Shown here piece by piece: positions 25,393 to 60,766 of a stretch of DNA of 64,000 nt. The notes under the pieces are model-generated. The model worked only from the letters and a program-made list of their open reading frames with translations. It was not told the origin of the DNA and searched no databases. Position 1 is the first letter of the stretch. Every line of letters begins with the position of its first letter. The translations under genes and the position numbers were made by a program. This DNA comes from Tricharina praecox. Its lineage: Eukaryota. The stretch is from the NCBI RefSeq assembly GCF_024521635.1, contig NW_026250410.1, positions 868,001-932,000 of the forward strand, read 5' to 3'.

Positions 25393-26722
25393 ATGGACCG
25401 AGAGCCTACAGAGCAGCCCTCAGAAGGCTACTGGCCCGGAACACCGCTTTTCGGCACTCCTCAACCGCCCAGCGAAAAATTCCAAGACGACTCATACACA
25501 TCATCGTCGTCCCAGCAGCAGCATGGCGGGCACCACCACAGCCAGCAGCAACGGTACCCGCCGTGGTTCCCGCCATCGGGAGTATCCCAGTGGATGCCGG
25601 AGCCATCCGACACACTGTACCCGATGGCGCCGCAGCCACCAGTAATCTGTGGCGGCGGCAACGGCAGCGGCAGCAGCCGCTCGAGCTCGTCCCGCCGCCG
25701 CGTTCCAAGCCCCATTGGTAGTCCCAGCCTCATCGCTTCGGAACAGGACGAGTACGGCCGGTTCGTCTGCAAATACGCCGAGTGCGACGCAAAGCCCCAG
25801 GACCGCATCTTCACCCGCAAGAGCGATTGGCGGTATGTTTCCCCCCACCCCCGTGTCATAGATGACATGAGATCTTCCGTTCCCAGTGCTGATGTCGTAT
25901 TGGCTACCTAGCCGGCATTCCGATAAGCACACTCGGCCGTATAGGTGCACGTACTCCACGTGCAAGGACCTAGCCGGCTTCGGCTGGGTAGGCGGCCTGA
26001 ACCGTCATCTCGAGGAGCTCCACAACAGCAAAGCCCAGCACAAGTGCCCGTACACCGAGTGCAAGCGCCATGTCAATGGCTTCTCGCGCTCAGCAAACCT
26101 CAAGAACCACATGCGGAAAGTGCACAATGTTGGCAGCGAGAGCTGCGGCGGCGGCGGCGGGGGATCCGCCGCTCCCTCGGAATTGGCCGACAACAGCTGC
26201 GGCGAGATCGACTCGCCTCCTCCTCCTCCTCCTCACAGGGAGGCGAAGCGGCTTCGCCGCTCGGATCGGACAGAGGACGAGCTCGTCAGGGCGATTGGCG
26301 AGGCTGAGATGGCAGTCAATAGGGCCAACGACGGCATGAGGACCGCGAGACAGACGCAACTGGATTGTATGGTGCATCTGGAGACGCTCAGGGCCGAGCT
26401 CGAGGATGGTCGGTCTAACTCTTCCGCTTCTGTTTCTGATTCATTTCCTTATTCTTCGGCGTACTACGGTGGTGGCGGAGGTGGTGGCGGGTGTTTCAGT
26501 GGTGGTGGTGGTGGTGGTGGTGGTGGTGGTGGTGGTGGTGGTGGTGGTGGTAGTGGTGGATACTTTCAGTCGTCTCCTACGCCGTCGGTGGCGAGCTACT
26601 ACGGCACTGCGGCTGTTACCGCCTCGCCGCTCTTCTACCCAGCGTCCCTTTCTCCGCCCACTCCCCCAGCAGAGTCCATAGCCTTCTATTCTCCGGGTCC
26701 TCCCTCGTGGCCAAATCACTAA
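25393..26722 (+). CDS. C2H2 zinc-finger transcription factor (3 fingers) with C-terminal coiled coil and poly-Gly tract; intron ~25833-25910
   Basis: CKYAEC..FTRKSDW|RHSDKHTRPYRCTYSTC..GGLNRHLEELH..CPYTECKR..GFSRSANLKNHMRKVH. GTATGT donor and CTGAT...TAG acceptor. (GGT)17 at 26501-26551. Confidence 0.85.
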
Positions 26723-27952
26723 TTCGGTGGCCGTCTTGTCTTGTGGGAATAGTCTATCTAGAGAAGCAAGCGAAGGCACTGGTCTACGACAGTTGATGGG
26801 CAGGACAGGAGTCTGCTGAACAACGGAGATGACCGGGGACCGTCCTCCCCACTTCCCTCCCTCCCTCCCTTTCCGATCCCTCCTCCCTCCTCCACACCTT
26901 TCCATCCGTCCACCACGTTTCTTTTGTCCACCACATTTCTTTTGTCCACAGCATAGTTAACCGGCGAATCTTTGTTTTCTGTTTTCTGTTTCTGTGTTTA
27001 TTTTTACCTTACTATTCTGTTTTCTGTTTTCTATTTTCTGTTTTTCTTTGGTGCGGGGATTGGGGTTGGGGATTTTCCTTTGTGGTCTGGCTGGCTGTTT
27101 GGCTTATTTGGCTATGGGTGAGTATGTAGGGGGGGAAGGCAGGGATGGAAACGGTACCTGTTAGACTGTGCGGTTGTTTGTTACGATGCAGGGGAAATGG
27201 GGGCAGCGGGGAGTGGGGGAATAAGGGGATGGTGGAATGGTGGAATAGGGGAATAGGGGAATGGAATGGTGGAGTTGGATATTGGATATCGGGTGGATGG
27301 ATGGATGGATGGATGGATGGATGGATGGAGGAACTCCTGTATGGTGGTTTGATATAGGGATGGATGGAAGTTGGATATGATATGCGGATGGGAATTATGG
27401 GTATCACTCTGGGTTTTATACAGGTACTACGGATAGAATTATGGGTATCACTCTGAACTTTGAAGTATGTACGGTTACCGGTACGGATTGTAGAAATTTG
27501 GCCCCTCCGGTTTTGGGTGTGCATATATGATATGTACCTAGGTGCCGTAGATGATTCTTGCGATATACGGAAAGGAAATCCCTTCCCTGGCAGGCAGTCA
27601 GTCAGTCCAGTCAGTCAGCATGCCTTTTTCTAGGGTTTTCTGCATGGGCTCAAAACACACCTCGCAGACAAACATCCCCTACGCATACCCACCTACTTAG
27701 TCATGCAGCTGCTGTTTCCAGTCAGTCGGCCAGTCAGTGACCAGCCAGTCAGTCTCGATAGTTAGCCGCCGCAAGGGGGAGGGGATGAAATGGCCAACAG
27801 CACAGCACAAACACAACACCTACTCTAGACGTGGAGGGGTACAGGGGATATGGAAGAGAAGGGGGAAGGATCTGTCGACCTCACCGGATCGAAATATCCA
27901 TTCGAATTTCCTTCACAGAGGGCCGGAGGACCAGAGTCGCAGACGATCACCC

Positions 27953-28139: not shown

Positions 28140-29915
28140 TCTAGCAGGAGCCGGCCGGGGTAGGCATGGGCGGACTCGGCTAATCCCCAGGTCGGGGCCA
28201 CGGCAGGTGCACGGTGCGGCAAGTCAATGGCACGGGCACGGGGGGGATTTAGTTCTGATCCCACTCTATCCACCTTACTCTATTCTCTGAGGGAGGGGAC
28301 ACGGACGGCAGAGTACAGCACTGAGCACCGCTTTGTGGTTGATAATTGGTGGATTGGTGGTGGTGGTGGTGCTGGCTTACCACTGACCACTGACCATCGA
28401 ATACCGTACTGTGCCGTCCTTTCTTCTTCTTTTTTCTTGTTCTTTTTTTTGTTTTCTGTTCGACACAGAATTTCTTGATGGAATTTCTTGCATATGATTT
28501 CTTGCCTTGCTGCAGGTTGCTGCGAATTGCTGCGAGTTGCTAAACGGCCCCCAGGATGTTTGGTTGTTTAGCCAGATGTCGTGCATGCGAGACTCGAGAG
28601 ATCCCGGCCCCCGGGTACTACGGTGGTTTCGGTGATTTGGGTACTGGTAGGTCAGTAGGAGGCAAGTAAGAGGTAGGTAGGAGGTAGGTACACACTCCCC
28701 GCTGCCCTGAGTTGATACTACCCATTCCTCCCCGAGTCCTCCGTGCGTCGGGCTTACCGAAGGGTTAAACATCGTACCCGTGGTCCCGTGGCCGGAGGTT
28801 GGGGGTCGGCGGGTCGGGAGGTGGTGGGGAGTGGTGGGGAGTGAGTGTTGGGGGTGGTGAGGTGGGGGAGAGGGGGAGGGGGATATGAACCCCTGCCTCG
28901 TCAGTCATGGATGATGGAACAGGGTTCCCACACACCCGTACTGTGGAATTCTATGTACTCTATGTAGGGTGTGCATAGTAGAGTACTGTAACCAGATGTA
29001 ACTAGTGGTATGCACAGGATATATATCTCCGAAATCCCGCCGTGCCTGGGACCAACCGTGCTAGGCCGGGAAAGGCCTGTGAGTCGTAAGGCCAGGACAC
29101 AGTAGTTACTAGTACTAGATAGTTGTAGAATAGAGTACACAGCACACGGAACACAGTGCCTTGTCGGTCTGTCGGGCTGTGTGGCTGTCTGTCCAGAGTA
29201 TCCGTCCAATTATTGCGAGGGGGGTGCTGGATACTGGTTTAGGGCTGAAACATCACGGATGGTGGTGGTGGAAGTGATGGATGTGGTGGTGGTGTGGACA
29301 CTCCACCTTCCACTCCTCCAGAGTCCACCAAAAGTAGAGTAGTTATTACCCACCCATCACCCAGCAAGAACATACGATACGATAGTCAACCGTGACCAGG
29401 AAATCGTAAGTCCCCCGGCCAGTCGGAATGTATATACGCACACACGCAGGCCCGGTATCCGGTCTGATATGTATGTACAATGTACAATGTACGGTACGGT
29501 ACGATGGTTGCATGTGTTCCCATGTACGAACGGACGGGTCACGGGGCGCAAACCTCGACATTCTGGAAGGATCAAGCCTGTTATTCGGGTTCGGCGAGCA
29601 TCACCGGCGGGCGACACCTACTTGTAGTGCTCAGGCCGGATGTTGCTGGCGAAAAAGAAATAATTGCATCCAGAAGATGGTCTTCCGGAATCCGGAAGAT
29701 GTCGGCCTTCCGCTGCCGTTCGTCGGCCGTGGAGGAGCGTGATGTTTGTAGGGCTGGGGCCTGGGCTAATCGAAGGGATGTGCGCGCAACGGTCAGTAAG
29801 CTTATCAACGATCATATCCTGGCCGACAAGCTGGTGTGGGGGAAAGAAAAGGAAAGCTGGGCGGTGGGTGAGATTAGATGTCGTCGTTTCGGCGGTGTGT
29901 AGTGGGAACGAGAGT

Positions 29916-30013
29916 GAGAATGAGAGGGTGAGAATGAGAGGGTGAGAATGAGAGGGTGAGAATGAGAGGGTGAGAATGAGAGGGTGAGAATGAGAGGGTG
30001 AGAATGAGAGGGT
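29916..30013. repeat. Perfect 14-mer tandem repeat (GAGAATGAGAGGGT)x7
   Basis: Read directly from the sequence. Confidence 0.95.
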
Positions 30014-31037
30014 GAGAATGAGAATGGGATTGGGACTGGGCGTGGGCAATGGGAATAAAAAGGAAGGTGAGACTGAGAAAGGAAATGGGCGTGGGCAATG
30101 AGAGTGAGAATGAGAGTCAGAGTGAGAATAATAATTCACCGGCGTCACATACCTAGCTCAACTCGACGGGACGGCCGCTACACTCGAAGCGTCTGACGAG
30201 AGTGCTAGGTTAATGAAAGCGATTGATGCTGCCTCGTTTTCTGTACTCCAGAGCACTCTGCTCGGAGTCGACCGACGATACTACTAGGCACTAGACACGA
30301 ACAGATCTCCTCGATTCATGCGGTAATTCCGCCAAGCAGAGTAGAATAGAGTGCTTACTCATGACTACCGGGTTTGTGCTGGCTGGCTGGCTGGCCGGTC
30401 CTTGAGATTGTTGTTTTATCGATATACGGTATGGTAATTTGATCTGTATAAACCAGCCACAATCCGGAGGACACCCCGCAGTCGTTGATCCATAAATACG
30501 GATAGCTGTCAGAGTCCAGACGAGATTTTGAGTGTATGATATCCCGACAAGTGCCAAGTACACCGGTATCACCAAAACGCCGAGCACCAAGTAGCTGGCT
30601 ACACTTGAGGAGCGAACGGTTGCACACGGTAATGCGATCATTGATGATTGCACTGTTCAGCGGCCACTGGACCAGTAGTCTTTCCCCAAGGCTAAACTTA
30701 TCATTCGATCTTCCACCTTAGTTATCGAGTACATGCCAGTAACAAAGTAGGCATGAAATCACCGGTGGTCACTGGTGTGGTGGGTTCGGTCCAAGTGTGC
30801 TCATCCTCTCGTTGCTAGAGAGTCGTGTGGTTTTTGGATGAGAGTTGTGTTAGGACGGTTCTCAAATCCAGACATGTAGGTGGCGAGGTGATTAAGGAGC
30901 TGTCGGTGAGAGGAAGCGAATGTGATTTTACTTAGTAGTGGGAATCAACGTTGACGGGCATGGTGGGGTTGACTACTTAGTCACATATCACTTCATAGTA
31001 GGCTATATGAAGCCATTGAGGCAGGTGCTTATCCAAA

Positions 31038-31370: not shown

Positions 31371-31764
31371 GCTGGGTACTGTTTCTTGTCGGTTGCGATC
31401 CCAGTTGTCCCAAAAGAATAGTACATCACTCGCTCTTTGACTCCCGTTGTGGTATGCTGACTGTTGGTCCGGAAGGAATCAGGGGAAGCAAACGTCACAC
31501 CAGCCAGCAGAGTCCTATTGAGATTTCCGTGGCCTGGAGAAGTGGTCTTGTGCTTGAAGTTCCACCGGTTGTCAACGAGCCCTTCACGTCTCGACGAGCA
31601 AAGCCCCGATTCGCAGTGCAGCTTCTGACACTCTATTAACCAAGTTTATGTAGTAATTCCGCGAATACCGCCACCCTGAAAGATACATACCATGACCCAG
31701 CCTCAAGCCCAAGAACGCATGCACACGAAACTCAAATCCCTAGCAAGCCTGACTAGCCAAATTT

Positions 31765-32720
31765 CTAAGTGATCCGTAGCTCCTGTTTGCCACTAGGCTT
31801 TCCACCCGCCTGTTCATAATACGCCTCGATCACGTAGTGCTTACCGCCCATATCCATATATTCCGGATCCGAATGCTTGATGACCTATGCACGCACACAC
31901 ACCCCGCCCACAACGTTAGCGCATCCATTTCCCTTGCCCATCACCCGTCGCCAGGACTCAGAACTTACATCGCCGACTGTAGATCTATCGTACTGCATGA
32001 CCTGTCCAAAGCTCGCATAGTAGAAGCGGATCGTGCTGGGCGCGATCGCGTTCTGCGCCATGTACGACATGAGAACTTTCGAGACGCGCGTTGACAACTT
32101 CGGCTTCATGAAAGTTACGGCTGTGGTGGGCGGGGGGGCGGGGGGGCGGGTTAGTTAGTGCAGTGATGGAGAGCCGGTGCGGGTGCGAAGGGGGACGTAC
32201 GCCATTGGCTGCCGTTGGGAATGATAACGATATTCACTCGTTCGTCGGCCAGTTCTTCGATTCTAGGCTCGGGTTTGACGGTAACGGAGGTAGTGCGCTT
32301 CCGGGGTTTTTGGCCAACGCGAGTAATGGCCTGTGGGGGTGCCACCGGGGGAGCGTAGTACTGGGGCCTTTCAGGGGCCACTGGGGGACTGAGATACTGG
32401 GTCGTTCCAGGTGCCACCGCGGGGGTGACGTCCATAGCCTGTGAGGGAGTCACCGCAGGAGTGACGTCCATGGCCTGTGAGGGAGCCGCTGCGGGAGTGA
32501 CGTTCATGGCCTGTGAGGGAGTCGCCGCGGGAGTGAGGGCCATAGGCTCCGTCTGGCCGCGGCTGGCAGCCGAGCCGGGGGCGGTGGACTTTGCAGAGCC
32601 TGCGGCGGGGGCGGGGTCTTTGGGCTCACCAGAGACTGTGGTGGTGGTGGGGGCATTCTCTACGGGATCGTTCGTATTCACGGCGGGCGTATCCGTGAGG
32701 TTGCGGACGGGGAAATGCAT
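31765..32720 (-). CDS. Divergent SUMO-like (Smt3-like) ubiquitin-fold protein with a long repetitive N-terminal extension; 3 exons, ~263 aa
   Basis: Exons 32720-32201, 32120-31969 and 31884-31765. Introns GTACGT..CTAAC..CAG and GTAAGT..CTAAC..TAG, with phases consistent. Spliced C-terminus: RVNIVIIPNGSQWPVTFMKPKLSTRVSKVLMSYMAQNAIAPSTIRFYYASFGQVMQYDRSTVGDVIKHSDPEYMDMGGKHYVIEAYYEQAGG-KPSGKQELRIT. Confidence 0.75.
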
Positions 32721-33836
32721 TTGTTTAATTGTTGATGCGGTGCGGTGTGGGACAAGAGATTGTGGTTGTGAGTTGCAAGAGAAAACCCGGCGTTGTGAAG
32801 GAGTGCATACGTGACCCAGGTTTATATCTTCACCCCTCCCCGGCCGGTCCTGTGATAGGACCGTACAATCGTAATGGCTTCAGCAGAATCTGCTATGGCC
32901 CACATCTGTGCTCGCACATTCCACAGTTCCGCGACACCGGCTTGCGGACAAAGGGCGACGAGTCGTTAACAAAGGGCCGGCCGCGTATGGTCCTGTAGGG
33001 TCTATGGTCTGGAAGTATCGACCATAGAATACCGTTCTTACGTACAATCCATTTTCATCCGCCGGGGATGCCTGTAACGGCATGTTTGCTACCAGTATAT
33101 CGTGTGTTGGAGAACGTGAATCTCCTACTTCTCGAGCTCCAGGGCACAAAATGGCCGATACCTAGTTCGTTCTTTGTCTGTATCCGGAACTTTCTTTTCA
33201 GTCTCTGATGCATTTGATCTATCTAGGAATCCGTATGCTAGGTGCTCGGAGATTGTGGAGCAAGTTGAAATGAGTGCAGAACTGAAAGGAATCAACTTTA
33301 GATTGTCGACATCGGTTTTCAAGATCAAGAACTCGGCCTCAATACCCGCAACTTCCCAATATTTACATACCATGTATGGTGTACATTACTTCGACGGAAC
33401 ATTACCGCTCCTACAACCACAGTAGCCTATGGTAAGAGCAGCCTCTAGAACAATAAAAAAACGGACGGCTCCTCTTTCTAGAATAGACATGCTTCTCGTT
33501 TTCCCCTTCAACGACCTTCTGCTAGTATCGGCCCCCTGCTAACAAAGGACTGTATGTGTGGTGGGGAGCAGCAGGGGAACGCTATATCCACGGCGAGGCC
33601 AGCGGGATAGCCCTATGGCAAAGCCGGATGGGTGGTTGAGCAGTACTAGAATAGAAATCGGACAGTACCTGGAATGCACTGCGCAGGAGCGGAGCAGTAG
33701 AACAATTGCCATGTCTAAGTTACCTAGGTCCACACAGAACGAGTGATACCATGGGATTCTAGCAAGCTGGCTAAAATACAGACCAAATGTCAACGGTATC
33801 TCAAAATAGTACAAGAATAAGTCCCCTATGCCCCCT

Positions 33837-36172: not shown

Positions 36173-37327
36173 CTAAGCAGTCTTCCCCCCCTTCCCGCGG
36201 TCCTTTGCGAAATAGCCATGGCCCTCCTCCTCCTCGCCCTCTTCAGGCTCGTCCATCTGCTCGCCCTCACTAAAGCTCTCCCAAACCCACTCATCCACCT
36301 CCACCTCCACCTCTTCCACCTCCCCAGCCTGCTCCCCAGCCTGCTCCCCAGCCTGCTCCCCAGCCTGCTCCCCAGCCTGCTCCTCGCCACCCTCCTCCCG
36401 CACCTTATTCTTCTTCACCATCATGACCTTCCTCCTCCTGCGGCCCCCCTGATGTTCGGCCTCGCCCTCCCTAATCTGCCCCTTCTCGATCTGCACCCTT
36501 TCCAGCCTGCGTAGAAAATCGCTCTTCCCGGCCAACTGCTCAGCAAACGGCCACTCCTTCGCTTTGACCACCGCAGGCGAGCACTGGACCCTATGTACGC
36601 CGACGGCAACAACCTTCCCGCATGCCGGATCCTGCATCGCCTTGCGCCAGTGTTCATTCTCCTCTAGCAGCGGGGGTCTCGGCACAGCCGCCGGCTTCCT
36701 CCGCCTGCCGCCGACATACGCCGCCGCCGCCGAAAAGTCGCGCTCCGAGTAGTAATAGCCTCCGCCGGAGATGCGCGGGGGCTCCCTGTAGGCCGCACCT
36801 GCCACCCCCACCTCCCCCTCCCCATCCTCCCCATCCTCCCCCTCCCCCACCACCCCTTCAGGCGTACCAACATAAACCTCACTCCCCACGGTCCCCGCCC
36901 AGCGCCCCGCCCAAATCCTATTCTGGTACCCGACGAGCACCTCGTCCCCCTCGAGCCCCAAGAGCTGCAGTCGATCGCGGCGGGCAGTAGCGCCGCGCGC
37001 CCACTTCGGTAGCTGCCGGGGCGCCTGCAGCCGTGAGGCGCCGAGCATGTGTGTCGACTTTTGCGGGTGGCTCGTGGCGGTCGGCGCGGCGGCCTTTTTG
37101 AGGGATGCGTTGGTGAATGGGTTCGTGCTGGGACCGGCTTGGACTGGTGCTGGGATCGTGAGGTCGATTGTTATGTAGTACTCCTCTGGGTCGGCTGACG
37201 AGTCGGTTTCGTATTCGGAGTCATCGTCGGGGGTGGGAACGGCGGAAGCGTGGGGTGGTGGGGGGTTGGCGGTGGCGGATGCGCGCGGTGGTGGGGCGGT
37301 GGACAATGGCGCGGGGTGGGTCGACAT
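36173..37327 (-). CDS. Transcription factor TFIIIC triple-barrel-domain subunit (TFIIIC sub6 family)
   Basis: Acidic EEYYITIDLT segment and RLQLLGLEGDEVLVGYQNRIWAGRWAGTVGSEVYV match the recalled family motif (LQILxL...P.V.Y....F...W...IGTEL.F). Likely start is MSTHPAP rather than the track's upstream start. 12-bp repeat encoding EQAG x5. Confidence 0.6.
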   Translation of the reverse strand: MSTHPAPLSTAPPPRASATANPPPPHASAVPTPDDDSEYETDSSADPEEYYITIDLTIPAPVQAGPSTNPFTNASLKKAAAPTATSHPQKSTHMLGASRLQAPRQLPKWARGATARRDRLQLLGLEGDEVLVGYQNRIWAGRWAGTVGSEVYVGTPEGVVGEGEDGEDGEGEVGVAGAAYREPPRISGGGYYYSERDFSAAAAYVGGRRRKPAAVPRPPLLEENEHWRKAMQDPACGKVVAVGVHRVQCSPAVVKAKEWPFAEQLAGKSDFLRRLERVQIEKGQIREGEAEHQGGRRRRKVMMVKKNKVREEGGEEQAGEQAGEQAGEQAGEQAGEVEEVEVEVDEWVWESFSEGEQMDEPEEGEEEEGHGYFAKDRGKGGKTA

Positions 37328-38017
37328 CGCGGCTATGTGTGAGGTTTGAGATGGTGGGGATGAGGTGGTGGTGGGGTGAGTCGCGCCTGGCGAGGAGACT
37401 CGAGAGTGAAGCAGTATATGGAAAAGAGTCGCGTTGCGTTGCGAGCTAGTCAATGGTGGGGCAACCCTGAACACTCACCAGCAGATCCAGCAGATCCATC
37501 TCCAGATCCAGACATTTCATTCGTAAGATAAGCGCACCACCAAATGACTAGTTAGAATAGGTAGAACAGCAGGACGACTATTAAACCACTAAACCAATAC
37601 CGAATCTCCTAGTTCCAAGTTCCCCACGGATTTTTCTTTCCCCCTCCCCTCCCCTCCTCTTCCTTTCCTTCCCTTCCGCTATGCCGCACACGCAAAAACG
37701 CCGTCCCCCCCGCAGAGTGAGTTCCTACACGCAAACAGACAGACAGACCGACAGACCACAAGCAAAACAAAAACAAAAAACGACGACGACGGGTAGGTAG
37801 ATACATTCCCCAAGTCAAGAGAATAGTAGAGTAAGTAGACACCAGACCAGGCTTCAGATGAAAGAAAAAAGGACGAATGACAAAAGACAAAAGACAAAAG
37901 GACGAAAGACAAGACAAAAGACTGTAATTGCGCTCGCTCGGGTATGCCATGTCTGCTCTAACCCAACACCCAATAGCCCTACTCCCCGATGTCTGCAGTA
38001 GGTACGAGTACGAGTCC

Positions 38018-50102: not shown

Positions 50103-53100
50103 TCAAATATCCCAAATCCACCAACCCTCCCACGCCCTGCCCGTCACTCCCACCTTCATCTCAGCAGCCCTCCACTCCCAAACCCCCCACCCCTCTTCGC
50201 CCTTGGGCCTCTCACGCTTCTTCTCCTCGAGAAACTCCACCAGCGCGCACGTATACCTCGGCCGCAGCTCGTCGACGAGAATGATCGACCCGTATGCTGG
50301 GACCACCGGCGCGGCGGGTCGGAACTCGTCGATCACTGAGACGCCGTGAAGGTGTAGCCGGCTGACTAGTGACGGTGTGCAGAGGTGTGGAAGTAGGCAC
50401 ACCGTTGAGCTGGGGAAGGGTGAGGTGAGTTTTGCGGGGGGGATATGGGGTTTGCTAGTTAAGGGGGAGGAGGGGGTGACTGGTGGGGTAGTGGTGGGGG
50501 TAAGAGTGGGGGTAGTGGTGGGGGTGTCGACGGGTGGGGCTCTGGTTGTGGGGGATGGGAGTGGGGGAGGGGAGGGTGGTAAGGGCACGGGGGTCGGTTG
50601 GCCTTGGGGAGTAGGTGGGGAAATGGCGGTTTGACTGGGCGAGGCGCAGACGTCTGGCTGGCTTGGTGGATTAGTGGCCGCAGGTTCGGCCTTGGTGACA
50701 AACGTTGGTTGACTATCCGGCACAGAAGACCGTTGCGACTGTGAGTGATCATTCGCCGCTGGCGGTTGACTATCAGGCACAGAAGAGCGTTGCGACAGCG
50801 AGGTATCATTCGCAGTGTACTCGATAAAGCTCTTCGCGAACAGGCCGGTGAGGTTCGTGCAGCCACTGACCGAATCCCGGCGATGCTGCTTCTTCCTCAG
50901 GGGGGAAGCATCCTGCGTCCCCTCATCCCTCTTGACCCCACTGCCGGTCTTCCGCTTCCTAGCCCCATCCTCGGGCGTCAACGAGAAAACATGTCTCGCC
51001 CTCTTCGGGGTTCCGGGGGCGAGTGATCCCGTCACAGACGGAGTAACCTCGTCCCCCCTCCTCGTTGAATTCTGCGGGGTTTCTTCGATCTGCTCTCCCA
51101 CATCGCCTCGTTCAAGCTTTGCAATCCATAGTCGCTCCTGCTGGCTGCCTCCGTGAGCACCGTGCAGCGCATCGTGTGCGAGAAGCTGCAGCTCGTCGAA
51201 TGACAATGCATCGCTGAATTCGCGGTCCCAGTGCACTTTGGAAACGCGTGGGTGGCGTGGAGTGAAGAAGCCACAGTTTGTCTGCCGATCGAAACTGCCG
51301 CCGCAGATCTCGAAGACGAGCGGGTGGCTGAAGATGTGTGTGGGCTTGGTGAGCGATAGCTCGCTGGGGAAGAGGAGGTCGAATTGTTCCAGTGGTGCGC
51401 CCGGCTAGGAATGGAGCGTCAACACTCGTTCGCTGAAGGATGGCAGGCGGGGGTACCTTGTACGGAATAGCATCGAAGTAGGCACATTTCTGGATCCAGC
51501 TCAGGTCGGCTTGGGTGATGCTATAGGTAACTTCGAAGACCACCTTGAGCTGTGGCTTTGCGCCGTACATCTTGACGTCCTGCTTATTCAACAGCACCGC
51601 TGCATGGAACGAGTTCAGGCTTCCAGCGGCCTGCTTTACCGTGGCCGCCCGTTTATGGTCGGAAACTCCGCCAACGATCGCAAAATCCGCAGTGTCTCCG
51701 AGTCCCACGATATAATCCTTCTTCAGCTTGACCCAGGCGTTCTCGGTTCCATAGAATCCATATCCTCGCGAAGACTTGTCTGGTCTGGTTCCTAAAAAGT
51801 TAAAATACGGAGCGTCGCATGGTTTCAACACGCATCCTTCCCAGCGGTTCAGAATTGCCCGGGCAAAGTATCGGCGCAGACGCTGACCAGCGGCCTCTTT
51901 ATTGATCGAAAAGTCGATCTTGGTGCGTTCTATCTGCTGGCAGTAACCCTCCTGTGGCTCGACAAGGACTCTTTCCAAGCGTTCGAGACGTGAAGTCAAC
52001 GAGTGGTTCAGTAGAGAAGTGCCATCCATCAACAGAATATCGAACAGTAGTATCATGACGTGGGAGGAGGCCGATCTTGGGATCCCATCGTTGGCACTCC
52101 CAATGTACACTCCGGATCGCGACACATGGCTCCGTATGTAATGGAACGGCATGATTTTCTTCTCACGGTCGCAGTAGACCACCATTTCCCCCTCCAGAAT
52201 ACATTTCTCCTTGAACTCGCGTTCATCGTCCATGTCGATCTTCAAAGCTCGATATATAGCTTCATGAAGTCCCACTCTATCCTGCGTTGAATCTTTCCCG
52301 CTCTTGGAGAATATTTTGATCCAGTTGTTCGGGCTCTTTGTGAGGTCAATGTGGATCTGACAGTACTCTCCATCATACTTGCGCTCCATCATCATCTTTC
52401 TGTTCCCAGCAAGCTGGATGGCATGTGCAGTCGAAGTAGCCTTCACGAACTCACCACGACCCACTTTGACGCCTGCTACCGGCTTGACGAAGCTGATGGA
52501 TTTCTCCAGCCAGTCCTGATACTTATTCGGGTCCGGCTGGGCTATCGGACAGGCCTTGGTCAACCTCTCGTCGCAGATTTGCTGGCAAGCCTTCTCCAGA
52601 TTGTCCTGGACCATATAAAGCTTGGGAAGGAGGAAGTGGTATGCCTGGAGGGTGATGGTTTCTGGCCATGTCGTCAGTCCAAGAGATTGACAGCGACCCA
52701 GCCGTTGTCAGCACTCACCAGGCATCCGAACCGGTGCAAGACTCTTGAGTATGCACCTCGTCAACCACTTCCCCTCCACCGAACTGAGCTGATTGAACAG
52801 CTCCAAAAGCTCCGCCGGCGGTGCCAGCTGGTCGGTCCTAACCCTCCGCGCCAGCTCCTTATTCGAAAAATGGCTTCTCGCAGCAAGCTTATCCAACAAC
52901 TCATCAACCTGACCCACCGTAACCTTGCCTCCCTCGCAATCTACCCCACGCATAACCCTCCTCACCGCCTCGCCCAGATCCCCACACGTTCGCCACTGCG
53001 CAAGATCATTTCCCCTCCCCGTACCCGCAATGCACAGCGCCTTGGTCACTGCCTTTGCCAGGCCCTCCTCACGTAGCATATACACCCTATCGGGCCTCAG

Positions 53101-53295
53101 CGCGGGCTGCAGCGTCGACTGTATCGCCAGAACAGTCTTTGGGTCGCCGTCGATGTCACAGCGGTTGGAGGAGAACCACCTATAGATCAGGGCTTTGACG
53201 AGCGTCTTGACCTTTGTTGGCGGGAGGCTGTGGTTGGACTGGAGCGCTTCGATCGCCTCGAGAAGCTCGACCACACGCAGGAACGGGACGGGCAT
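50103..53295 (-). CDS. ATP-dependent DNA ligase family protein (Lig4-like core, atypical); 3 exons
   Basis: DNA-binding domain exon 53295-~52719. Adenylation motif I ERKYDGEYCQIH; III ILEGEMV; IIIa LFDILL; IV WEGCVLK; V WVKLKKDY; VI PRHPRVSKVHWDR after the intron at ~51456-51405. Low-complexity tail. Confidence 0.9.
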
Positions 53296-54400
53296 GGTGT
53301 TGCGGTTGTGTGTGCAATGTAGATGACTCGAGACCTTGCGATTTGGCGGTTATGGCTGTCGCATCGTTGTGCGAAAAACTTCAATTCTCGAAAGTCGAAA
53401 AGGAAATGCGCTACCCGCCTTACTCTTATAGTTAGGGAGCGGTTGCTGTCAGGAGATAACGGACTGGGCTGCAGAGTGTGTCCGTTTCACCGACAAGGTT
53501 GTCGGATTCTCTAAACTAGAAACGCGAACGTGAAGCGTAGACATGTGACCGTACTCGTGATCGGCGATAAGGCGGGGAGAGTGGGAGGTGATAAATGAGG
53601 AGTCGGACAGGCGACCGCCGAGGTGGGTGTGCAGTCATGGTGGCCACCGTGGATGAAGGAGAATGCATCATCAGCCAGAACACTTGAGCACTTCCAGTCC
53701 TGCCAATTCGATTGACCTCGCTCAGCCCTCATTTGGTCCATCATATGATTTCTACTCTGCTTTCTGCCCTTACTTGGCAGGATACTATCTGCGTACTCAG
53801 CACCTGCACTCCATGTTTTGTGGGGCCGCGGCCTGAGAGCAGGTGCATACATACATCCTACCGGTACTCTATTCGCTATCGACTCAGCTGCAGAGATCCT
53901 GCCTCGCAGGTCTTCCGAAATCTTCATTTCCTCGTCTTGCGATTTCAATATCCGAACAATATTCTTGGCAACCAATAATAACAATCACAATTGCTCGTAT
54001 TCACCGCAAAAATGCTCGCTCGCGTTTCGTGTCGTGGGCGCGTTACTGAGACAACGCTAACTTTATTCGCTTGTCAACAACAGCGCATCACTCAGAAGGA
54101 AGAAAGAGAGAGTGAGAGAGCAGGTTAGCCGAAGGAGAGCAACCACACCCACCCCCGACGACCAACTCGACGTCAACGTCCCAACTACCAACCTCTACCA
54201 CTGCTATCCGCCTCGGCAGCATTGTCCCCCGCGCGTCTCCAGCTATTGGCACGTCGTCGGCGATAGCGAGTCTAGCGCTTCAATCCCGCCCGAACAGCCA
54301 GCCGACTGCACCTCCCTCCAGCGCCACCGACCCAGTCCTCCCGCATCTTCGTGTCGCAGCGATACCCACCTGTCACTGCATATCATCGCCCCGCCCCATC

Positions 54401-57418: not shown

Positions 57419-59256
57419 CTACCTCGCCTCCCTCGCCTCCCTAGCTCTCAGATCTCTAATCAGAGCCTTCGCCTCCTCGACCTCCTGGCCGTCCTGTGCA
57501 AGTTCCTCAGCAAGCTGCATGGCGCGGTTCCACTCGCTGCTGACGAACGCCCATCTAGCAAGCCACAGCCTCGCCTGTCCGGTGACGCCCGTGACGCCCG
57601 AGTTCTCCTCCTCGGCCATGCACGCCTCCATCCACTTGGCGGCCTCCTTGCTGTTGCGCAGCTTCTCGTACATAGTCGCGATGAGGTACAGGATCTGCGG
57701 GTCGTGGCCGCCGGCCGCCGACGGCGACAGCGAGATGAGCGCCCGCTTGAATGACTTGATAGCCTCTGTCGGCCGGTTCATGCGGTCGAAGCACTGGCCC
57801 ATTGCCTGCCACATCTGCGAGTCGTAGGGGCGGAGGGCGGCTGCGCGCTGGAAGTAGAAGAGGGCGTAGTAGTGCATTTCCAGGACTTCGTAGGACAGCC
57901 CCAGCCCGTACCAGGCGCGGTAGTCGCGGCGGTTCACGTCCACTGCCCGTCGGTACGCTTCGATCGCTGCGTGGGTGTTTTTCATTTCTACGTATTCGTG
58001 TCCCATCAGGGTCCAGGCGGAGAGGAAGGTCCGGTCGAGGGTGAGCGCCCGCCGGAAGTACATCACGGCTTTTTCGTGCTCAGATTTTAGTGAGTAGTAG
58101 TTGCCGATCACGCAGCAGGTTTCGGGGCGGAATTTGTCGGTCGAGCTGGCGAGCTGGGCAATGAAGCCGAGTTTTGGGCGCCGCTCCATCACGTATAGGA
58201 TATTGGAGTAATGGTCGAGGGCGTCGATCCGGTGCGGATCGATTTTGATCAGGCTGTCGAAGATTGACTCGGCTTCTTCAAAATCGCGTGCGTGGTAGTA
58301 AAGTAGTGCGCGCTGCGTTTTGAGCCACGATGAGCCGGGGAAGAGGTTGAGGAGATCGGACAGCTGCGAGTGGATTGGATCGGCGGTCTGGTAGAGCTCC
58401 TGGTTGGTGGACAGGACGAAGAGATTGGTCATGATGTTCGCTGGGAGCGACGGGAGGATGGTGTTGAGCTATTCCTGTGGATTAGCATCGCGATACGTAA
58501 GGAGGGAGAGAGAGAGGGGGGGGGGAGCGTACATCGGTCAAAGTCCCTATCGTTGCGCCCAACTCCTGCCAGGCCGACCAATTGTACGGATATAGATTGA
58601 CACTCTTTAACAGTGCGCCTCTAGCCTCTTCCTCATTCTTTTGTTTCTGCAATACAATGCCATACAAGAACAACAACCAGCTATCATCCTCGCCCCACAT
58701 CGTATCGCCATCCTTCTCCGCGAAAATTTCCTCCAGCGCAGTGAGAATCCCCGCAACCTCCTTATTCCTCGTCTCGGCACCATCTAGCGGGCCCAGCACC
58801 ATCTCCGAATCCTCATCCCGCCGCTTCTCGCCAGCTATGTATCGTGCGTATAGGTGTAAAAACCGCGCCTTGGACGACTTGCAATTCTGGAGTACGAACG
58901 ACGCGCGGTCATATTCGTGCACGTCAAAGTACGACTTGGCAAGGAGGTATTGGTTGAATTCGACGGTTTCGAGCGCGAGTTCGGCGGTGTCTGCGGACAT
59001 GGGGTGGAGGTAGGCCTGCGGGAGGGCGACGGAGGTCTCGGCGGACGGAGGAGGTACGTCCATCGATGTGAGGAGTTCGGCGGCCCTAGGACGCGTCAAT
59101 AACTGTATCGCCCGGTAACGGGGGAGCTTGAACACGAGTAATGGTGCCGTGAGCTCACCATTTTGCTGATTGGTAGAGACACCGCTCGCTGCATTTAAGC
59201 ATCGCGGTTTGCAGGAGGCTCTGCAGCTGGTGGGGTTCGGGAATTTCGGTCGCCAT
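57419..59256 (-). CDS. CDC23: Anaphase-promoting complex subunit 8 (TPR protein); 3 exons
   Basis: CSERCLYQSAKW|AAELL, YLLAKSYFDVHEYDRA, RPETCCVIGNYYSL, AWTLMGHEYVEMKNTHAAIEAYRRAVD, DYRAWYGLG. Confidence 0.96.
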
Positions 59257-60766
59257 GGGAGCGGGGCGGTCGTCTTGGAGGGAGGTGAGTACGAGTTCCG
59301 GAAGAGGAGGCGGAGAAGGTGGAGGTAGAGGAGGTAGAGGAGGTAGAGGAGGAGGTGGTGGGGAAGTTGATTTGGGGGGTGGTAGTTAGTGAGTTGAACA
59401 CCGGTACTACCAGCGTTGTTCTTGTGCAACGTTCTCGTCGGTAGATAGAAGCGGGCCGGGGACCGGGAAGGGGGTTCGTATGTGTCTGCAGGGGTGTTTG
59501 CCGAGACGGCCGTCGCAATTGAGGGCCGCCGACACTACTGAGCCGAACCGCCCTAGAGTACCCACAGCCCGAGTACTAGTTATATTCTAACCGGAAGCCC
59601 AACCAAGTACCTACATTAGGATGTAAGTTCTTGCCTACTATTCGGTTACTGGTATGTACTGATGTTGCAGAGTATTCTATTCCTTTGACGCCGGAGATTC
59701 AATGCTTCGCCCACTCGGAGATCCAGCTCGGAAGAGAAGGCCAAAAAACGGGAAACCCCCCTCGATTCTCCAGAGACTTCCTCTCGCCAGTTCGTGGAGC
59801 CCATGAAGCCCTACCAGCTGATCGGGAGATATTCTTGCCCTCCCGTGCCGAGAGATATCCAGGCTCTCTTAGCGCCAGGCAACACTGCGGGCAAAGAGTG
59901 TCTTATTATGGTGCGCGAGAGATCGGGCTTTGACATCGAGAGTATGTGCATATCAGGCACTCTGTAGGAGAGTATATTGCAGCTTAGGCACACGTACCCA
60001 GAAGACTTTTCAGGAGATCAGAGAGATATCTAGAAGAGCTTGCGTTTGCTGTCCGCGTGCACGCAAGCGGGCGTGACCATATCCACTGGCTTTGTTGGAC
60101 CGTTTGGTGTTTGGCGTTCGGTGTTCGGCGTCCGGCTTTGGACCTCCAACGGAGACAGACACGAGACCTCGATGGTTGAAAGAAGGGTGTCTCCCGCTCA
60201 TGAAGATACCTACCGGAAGAAGGCCGCACATCCGCAATCGAACGGCTTGTATGTCTGACTACTCTAGTGATCTTGGCCTTTTTCGAACGCCGTACTAATA
60301 GTTAACCGTCCATTGTAGATGTGTGCTGATGGTAACTTTCTGTGGCCCAGGTTGGTTTGATTGTGTTCTGCACTGCACCCGCTCGCTCGCAGCAGCCACC
60401 CGCACGTGCAAACGGTGTCACCAGTGCTATCGTTGTGAATGGCGAAGCCGTGTGGTGATATCCCCACATCTCTCGTTGCCGCATATTTGCACGTCAGCAA
60501 GAAGCGGAACGTTATCAGATCCTTCTAACCTCAATTAGGGCTGGCAGCTCACACATCCATGTTCCGAAAACGAACCCCTGCAGCCCCCGCCCCCGGCGGT
60601 CCTCGCCCGCTCGCTGCTATTACAATACCCCCCCTACAACCCATCTCTTGCTCTCTCTCTTCTACCCATCTCTTCACACCTCTCTCTTCTACTCTTCTCT
60701 TCATACCTCTCTCTTCTAGCCATCGCCTCCTATCTTCATCAATCGACACCCGCATAGCTCGACACA

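Follow-up and report, generated by a model that had tools for sequence, protein, structure and literature searches.

Few eukaryotic proteins are as conserved as SUMO; the locus described here encodes a SUMO-like domain that has diverged strongly and is best conserved at its C-terminal end. The gene occupies positions 31,765 to 32,720, on the minus strand, of a 64,000-nucleotide (nt) stretch of contig NW_026250410.1 from the cup fungus Tricharina praecox; this whole stretch is called the window, and all coordinates are positions within it. The product, 263 residues long, is composed of an N-terminal arm (residues 1-146), a SUMO-like part (residues ~147-252) that terminates in Gly-Gly, and an 11-residue tail (residues 253-263). 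The reading that we favour, with a probability of about 0.45, is a strongly diverged SUMO paralogue, restricted to one lineage, which retains the layout of a precursor and might undergo processing and conjugation.

The gene is composed of three exons separated by two short introns. Splicing the exons in a script yields 792 nt, encoding 263 residues and a stop codon.

32720..32201, minus strand: exon 1, with the ATG at 32720; codons 1-173 and the first base of codon 174
32200..32121, minus strand: intron 1, 80 nt, GTACGT...CAG, branch motif CTAAC; splits codon 174
32120..31969, minus strand: exon 2, from the last two bases of codon 174 to codon 224; encodes FMKPKLST, the helix RVSKVLMSYMAQ and IRFYY
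31968..31885, minus strand: intron 2, 84 nt, GTAAGT...TAG with a GCTAAC branch motif
31884..31765, minus strand: exon 3, codons 225-263, with the TAG stop at 31767-31765
32821..32826, minus strand: TATAAA, ~100 nt 5' of the ATG, a possible TATA box as read from the sequence

The spliced product carries VNIVII, FMKPKLST, KVLMSY, IRFYY and IEAYYEQAGG, then KPSGKQELRIT, and matches letter for letter the 263-residue NCBI entry 'hypothetical protein BZA05DRAFT_443866 [Tricharina praecox]', which was found by a database search with exon 2 alone. The three-exon gene with canonical introns and a product of ~263 residues, as proposed in the initial annotation, is borne out by this identity. The gene is not hidden, as had been claimed, because its product is identical to an already annotated protein; it was unseen only by an intron-blind, bacterial-style list of open reading frames (ORFs). 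The GC content of the SUMO-like part at the three codon positions (GC1 0.52, GC2 0.39, GC3 about 0.66-0.69) resembles that of coding sequence and of neighbouring ORFs, and the gene model is more than chance. Intron 1 also contains, at 32128-32150, a perfect (GGGCGGGG)x2.9 tract that is C-rich on the transcript strand, because of which the read-alignment tool masked 32122-32160.

One public sequencing run (X1), whose kind ('RNA?') is the tool's guess, matches part of the locus. A single 368-nt contig from this run aligns with 0 mismatches to 31698-31882, 31967-32120 and 32201-32229, joining all three exons. The 84-nt skip at intron 2 is called as a joint, with CT..AC ends, cut +2, a depth of 4.7 and at least 154 letters on each side; given its 2-nt ambiguity, the CT..AC joint corresponds to GT..AG on the minus strand and equals the junction 31969/31884. 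For the 80-nt skip (32120 to 32201), the sole record is in the contig's pieces table, with 29 letters on its far side against the tool's bar of 31. Both junctions predicted in the initial annotation, 32201/32120 and 31969/31884, are therefore seen in one joined molecule, that of intron 1 less firmly. The contig fully covers exon 2, covers exon 3 together with 67 nt of 3' untranslated region (to 31698), and reaches the last 29 nt of exon 1 (32201-32229). Nothing in three soil metatranscriptome runs (X2-X4) matched the stretch.

The SUMO-like part and the tail are marked by three short features.

32268..32279, minus strand: VKPE, codons 148-151, the sole psi-K-x-E (sumoylation consensus) found in the protein by motif scan
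31801..31830, minus strand: IEAYYEQAGG, codons 243-252, the SUMO-type C-terminal tail, with Gly-Gly at 31806-31801
31768..31800, minus strand: KPSGKQELRIT, codons 253-263, an 11-residue extension after the Gly-Gly and putative propeptide

A search of the PDB with residues 141-263 (177,635 sequences, matches listed to an expectation value, E, of 10) returned 17 sequences, 14 of them named SUMO-1 or SUMO-2 (E 0.19-0.81). Inclusion of chain 9i08_A brings the SUMO count to 15 of 17; its matched segment is taken as an Smt3 tag because, once numbering is shifted by an offset of 21, it agrees with all Smt3 residue names given in PMC5319795. The SUMO alignments run end to end, from the N-terminal arm of SUMO through Gly-Gly on Gly-Gly, and the C terminus has the SUMO arrangement: E248-Q249-A250-G251-G252 is followed by 11 residues, and the Gly-Gly aligns to that of both SUMO-1 and the Smt3 segment. 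Along the latter, VKPE pairs with AKPE/VKPE of the arm, FMKPKLST with FFKIKKTT, IRFYY with LRFLY, and IEAYYEQAGG with IEAHREQIGG. Identity to the Smt3 segment, counted by eye, amounts to 27 of 89 aligned positions (~30%) and is concentrated at the end, where the final 10 residues share 7 with Smt3 I89-G98, versus 20 of the other 79. Only two insertions interrupt the alignment, W173-P174 (2 residues) and S220-S229 (10 residues), and both coincide with exon junctions, the first at codon 174 (exon 1/2) and the second across D224/V225 (exon 2/3). These insertions may reflect slippage of ancestral intron boundaries in a SUMO-derived gene.

Against Pfam, Rad60-SLD (PF11976) is the top family for residues 141-263, with a score under the gathering threshold and a match restricted to profile positions 12-46 of 72; exon 2 alone gives E=0.13. 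The ubiquitin family (PF00240) is absent from the matches up to E=10, both for the whole protein and for residues 141-263.

Structural comparison gives a mixed picture. Within the ESM Atlas model of the protein, which has a whole-protein predicted local distance difference test (pLDDT) score of 0.53, residues 152-252 superpose on a chordate SUMO cluster with template modelling (TM) scores of 0.67 by query and 0.81 by target, and on an ascomycete pmt3/smt3 cluster with scores of 0.64/0.75. The named families among the Atlas structure rows (ubiquitin, Rad60-SLD and ATG12) are all ubiquitin-like. A Foldseek search of the PDB with a low-confidence AlphaFold2 model gave no match at E<=0.001 (best E 0.68, TM <=0.43); about 33 of its 47 rows are ubiquitin-like or other beta-grasp proteins by title, a list that was set aside, the model being too poor for meaningful matches. 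The likeness to SUMO is sub-threshold in each single test, yet runs in the same direction across four kinds of test. Descent of the domain from SUMO is, in our judgement, highly probable, although membership at the level of Pfam is not reached under the curated threshold. The SUMO/Smt3 pattern that the initial annotation had recognised in the last ~100 residues holds up, and the best explanation for these ~105 residues is a SUMO that has diverged greatly and closes with EQxGG and a short tail.

Retention of functionally critical residues is mixed. The 15 positions of Smt3 listed with lethal mutations in Table 1 of PMC5319795 were mapped through one sub-significant alignment, that with the Smt3 segment of 9i08_A. 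Six are identical (T43=T184, F65=F206, Y67=Y208, I89=I243, G97=G251 and G98=G252), four are conservatively replaced (I24 by V162, V28 by I166, F37 by M178 and R47 by K188), and five are changed. Smt3 R64, E90, E94 and Q95 are also retained. According to the same paper, Smt3 R71 contacts the activating enzyme (E1) and Ulp, with R71E being lethal and R71A just conditional; D30 and D68 contact Ubc9, and the extension after the Smt3 Gly-Gly is ATY (PMC5319795). The tail and the Ulp-facing F65/Y67/I89 surface would accordingly seem to be preserved, while several charged enzyme contacts would not. This mixture fits a modifier whose affinities for the enzymes have altered, or a domain turning into a non-covalent SUMO mimic. 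Processing and conjugation appear plausible, and the term 'processable' in the initial annotation draws solely on the retained motif.

The SUMO-like part is preceded by an arm with a distinct composition and repeat content.

32283..32720, minus strand: coding region of the N-terminal arm, residues 1-146
32415..32545, no strand assigned: 36-nt tandem repeat, 3.6 copies with 85% matches, encoding 12-residue units
32341-32424: second 36-nt array, 2.3 copies
32295..32309, minus strand: KPRKR, codons 138-142, a basic patch just N-terminal to the SUMO-like part

The arm contains 26 Pro, 25 Ala and 20 Thr residues and four 12-residue units, TPA(A/V)xPSQAM(N/D)V, whose first residues are 63, 75, 87 and 99. 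A single-sequence AlphaFold2 model places no secondary structure across residues 1-146, and the arm is probably disordered. Since residues 97 to 177 contain no in-frame Met, initiation at M96, the alternative start giving the shortest product, would still place ~50 residues of arm ahead of the SUMO-like part. KPRKR may act as a nuclear localisation signal, judged by the consensus for such signals.

No relative of the SUMO-like domain emerged from an exhaustive phmmer search of 1.84 billion cluster representatives with the whole protein as query. Eight matches reached E<=0.001, namely the protein itself and seven whose best stretch lies in the N-terminal arm; neither known SUMOs nor members of the RENi family (Rad60/Esc2/NIP45) were among them. 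The database matches to the arm are solely other repeat or low-complexity proteins, three of the seven having been inspected (one by BLASTP) and four judged by matched range only. Word-index protein searches likewise returned only the protein itself, among 5 candidates for exon 2 at longer lengths and among 31 candidates for residues 140-263 at near lengths; for residues 141-263 at shorter lengths there was one candidate and none at E<=10. A scan of metagenome contigs gave 88 pattern matches, of which 0 were confirmed by tblastn. The sequence cluster of the protein has one member, and tblastn finds no paralogue within the 64-kb window. A weak tblastn match at 34814-34629 (E=3.6) was rejected as a paralogue, lying in an unrelated ORF that has no Pfam family.

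Several of the results weigh against a SUMO paralogue that is processed and conjugated. Rad60-SLD has a gathering score of 23.8; the whole protein reaches 11.3 bits and residues 141-263 reach 13.4 bits (E=0.069). In the PDB search, the best expectation values (SUMO-1, 0.19; SUMO-2, 0.57; the Smt3-bearing chain 9i08_A, 0.1) are below significance, and the top match (E=0.059) is a non-SUMO surface-anchored protein, the remaining non-SUMO match being a nanobody. The Atlas feature scores (0.82-0.87) fall in a range rated by the tool as a lead only, and AlphaFold2 without relatives produces unusable models (mean pLDDT 41.4 for the whole protein and 35.7 for residues 141-263). The five changed lethal positions are H23 (R161), D30 (P168), I39 (P180), R55 (Q196) and R71 (V214), and the conditional position D68 is Ala209. 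No orthologue was found that would show purifying selection on the Gly-Gly. The X1 contig has a depth of 4.7 and misses 490 nt at the 5' end of exon 1, leaving outside its span the long arm, which is presumed to share a transcript with the SUMO-like part. Fungi are, moreover, stated to have a single SUMO in two papers (PMC11986368, PMC11436951).

Several other explanations were weighed. All sequence scores lie under significance, the AlphaFold2 models are unusable and Foldseek with a poor model finds nothing below E=0.68, as would be expected of a chance resemblance in a domain that is not a beta-grasp; SUMO-1, SUMO-2 and the Smt3 segment, together with Pfam's SUMO model and the structure search in the Atlas, nevertheless agree on family and register, with Gly-Gly on Gly-Gly, and we regard coincidence as very unlikely. 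Still more improbable is that the protein is the only SUMO of the organism, an aberrant canonical SMT3. With ~30% identity to the Smt3 segment and essential contact residues changed, it fails PF11976, which the 98-residue fungal MrSmt3 reportedly matches (PMC11436951). The initial annotation held it far too diverged to be the housekeeping SUMO; at 13.4 bits against a cut-off of 23.8, it is too diverged for the Pfam SUMO model.

The protein may be a SUMO-like-domain protein that is never conjugated, a SUMO mimic in the manner of ubiquitin-domain proteins, binding proteins with SUMO-interacting motifs (SIMs) or pathway enzymes non-covalently, in which Gly-Gly and tail would be an unused relic and the arm would have another role. 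This possibility, which we hold to be somewhat unlikely, gains from the loss of the E1, E2 (Ubc9) and Ulp contacts R71, D30 and D68 of Smt3, from the partial retention of SIM-groove features (FxKxK, T184 and K188) and from an architecture shared with the RENi proteins of PMC549199, in which a low-complexity N terminus precedes a SUMO-like domain. It sits poorly with the fact that the known SUMO-like-domain proteins are without the double glycine, whereas here EQxGG and the short tail form the best conserved stretch (7/10); the candidate has a single SUMO-like domain, and the exhaustive search matched no RENi member. A young or decaying SUMO duplicate, fused to a repeat-rich upstream ORF and drifting at low transcription with no selected function, is unlikely in our estimate. 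Such a duplicate would account for how extremely the protein has diverged within a family that is usually well conserved, for a cluster of one with no domain relative among the 1.84 billion representatives, for an X1 contig depth of just 4.7 and for a repeat expansion in exon 1 that looks recent (36-nt units, 85% matching). Drift is harder to reconcile with a frame intact across three exons, canonical splice and branch sites, codon-position GC typical of coding sequence, and the preferential retention of the SUMO hydrophobic core positions and the C-terminal tail.

Under the favoured reading of a diverged SUMO paralogue made as a precursor, with a VKPE lysine in a flexible arm, a presumed beta-grasp core and the tail IEAYYEQAGG, a Ulp1-type protease would cut after Gly252 and remove the 11-residue extension. 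The exposed Gly-Gly would then be activated by Aos1/Uba2 and handed to Ubc9, and the 252-residue product would be attached to target lysines, placing a SUMO surface and a long disordered arm on the target. Lys149 in VKPE could serve as an acceptor of further units. A stronger version, in which the protein is a second conjugatable SUMO-type modifier, a 252-residue 'giant SUMO' matured between EQAGG and KPSGKQELRIT and attached to targets with its 146-residue disordered arm, we put forward tentatively, as the less probable outcome. The initial annotation had suggested a lineage-specific second modifier: a lineage-restricted paralogue, with no relative of its domain found among 1.84 billion representatives, is what we favour, and a modifier function is plausible.

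The interest of the candidate lies in a combination of ~30% identity, the exact maturation and activation motif, a long disordered arm, a spliced form in a public run and no detectable relative. Nature has here provided a test of the SUMO residues that E1, E2 and Ulp enzymes truly need, and the protein may illustrate the origin of new ubiquitin-like modifiers or of SUMO mimics. A second conjugatable modifier would be an exception to the stated single-SUMO rule for fungi and a case of a ubiquitin-like modifier of recent origin within a single lineage, with a built-in arm that would add a new interaction or condensate-forming surface to its targets. An inert relic would be an ordinary orphan gene. 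Judged from its sequence, the candidate looks like an unusual variant of a well-known protein type, found in one species.

The surroundings show no sign of a transposon or gene cluster. Window genes include the housekeeping genes Prp31/Nop, TrkH, ATP-dependent DNA ligase, a protein kinase, APC8/Cdc23 and polyprenyl synthetase, and no Ulp, Ubc9 or E1 was identified by Pfam among 32 ORF translations of the window. Upstream, at a distance of 3.5 kb, lies a TFIIIC subunit-6-like ORF; downstream, at 5 kb, there is a C2H2 zinc-finger ORF. The former (36176-37474, minus strand) encodes 433 residues with a TFIIIC subunit 6 triple-barrel domain (PF10419, E=1.6e-06) and a C-terminal repeated (GEQA)n tract; an ORF at 25871-26719 (plus strand) has a weak zf-C2H2_aberr match (E=2.7e-04, under the cut-off) followed by long poly-glycine runs. 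Between 27000 and 30200, ~3 kb hold no convincing gene and many short peptide-like repeats in open frames, with the units PSHSHPLILTLSFS at 29618-30157 and SIHP at 27012-27614, and GC skew is strongly positive (0.18-0.24). APC8/Cdc23 (ANAPC8 plus TPR repeats; 57422-59534, minus strand) is split over two adjoining ORFs, presumably by an intron, and the DNA ligase is likewise split over 51115-53349 (minus strand); both are ordinary housekeeping genes with introns.

Comparison with SUMO/Smt3/Pmt3 (PF11976) reveals a collinear set of shared elements: the psi-K-x-E arm (VKPE), FxKxKx(S/T)T, a helix ending in SY, (I/L)RF.Y, (V/I)IEA and EQxGG. The extension after Gly-Gly is short (11 residues), as in SUMO precursors, and the Atlas model superposes on SUMO clusters. 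The candidate differs in having only ~30% identity to the Smt3 segment, under the Pfam cut-off, in its length of 263 residues versus ~100, owing to a 146-residue, repeat-bearing and probably disordered N-terminal extension, in changed equivalents of Smt3 R71, D30, D68 and R55, and in having no detected orthologues.

RENi proteins, as PMC549199 describes them, combine a low-complexity N terminus with a pair of SUMO-like domains among fungal and animal members and have no double glycine. The candidate resembles them in placing a low-complexity region before a C-terminal SUMO-like domain, but it has one such domain (147-252) and keeps EQAGG and a tail. Membership of the Rad60/Esc2 group, an alternative raised in the initial annotation, is ruled out by the single domain, the Gly-Gly at 251-252 and the lack of a RENi match in the exhaustive search.

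A literature search found no fungal SUMO-like protein with both a long N-terminal arm and a retained Gly-Gly, and a precedent in print is still possible. Plants (Arabidopsis, including SUM5) and vertebrates are said to possess diverged extra SUMO paralogues whose conjugation competence is uncertain. These share with the candidate the nature of additional diverged copies of uncertain competence, the plant ones being the closest analogy, but arose in lineages with many SUMO genes, whereas the candidate is fungal. Among the plant non-canonical SUMOs, SUM4/6/7/8 are described in PMC11986368 as unexpressed and without the di-glycine; the Tricharina praecox protein, in contrast, has a spliced form seen in a sequencing run, keeps its Gly-Gly and carries a long N-terminal arm.

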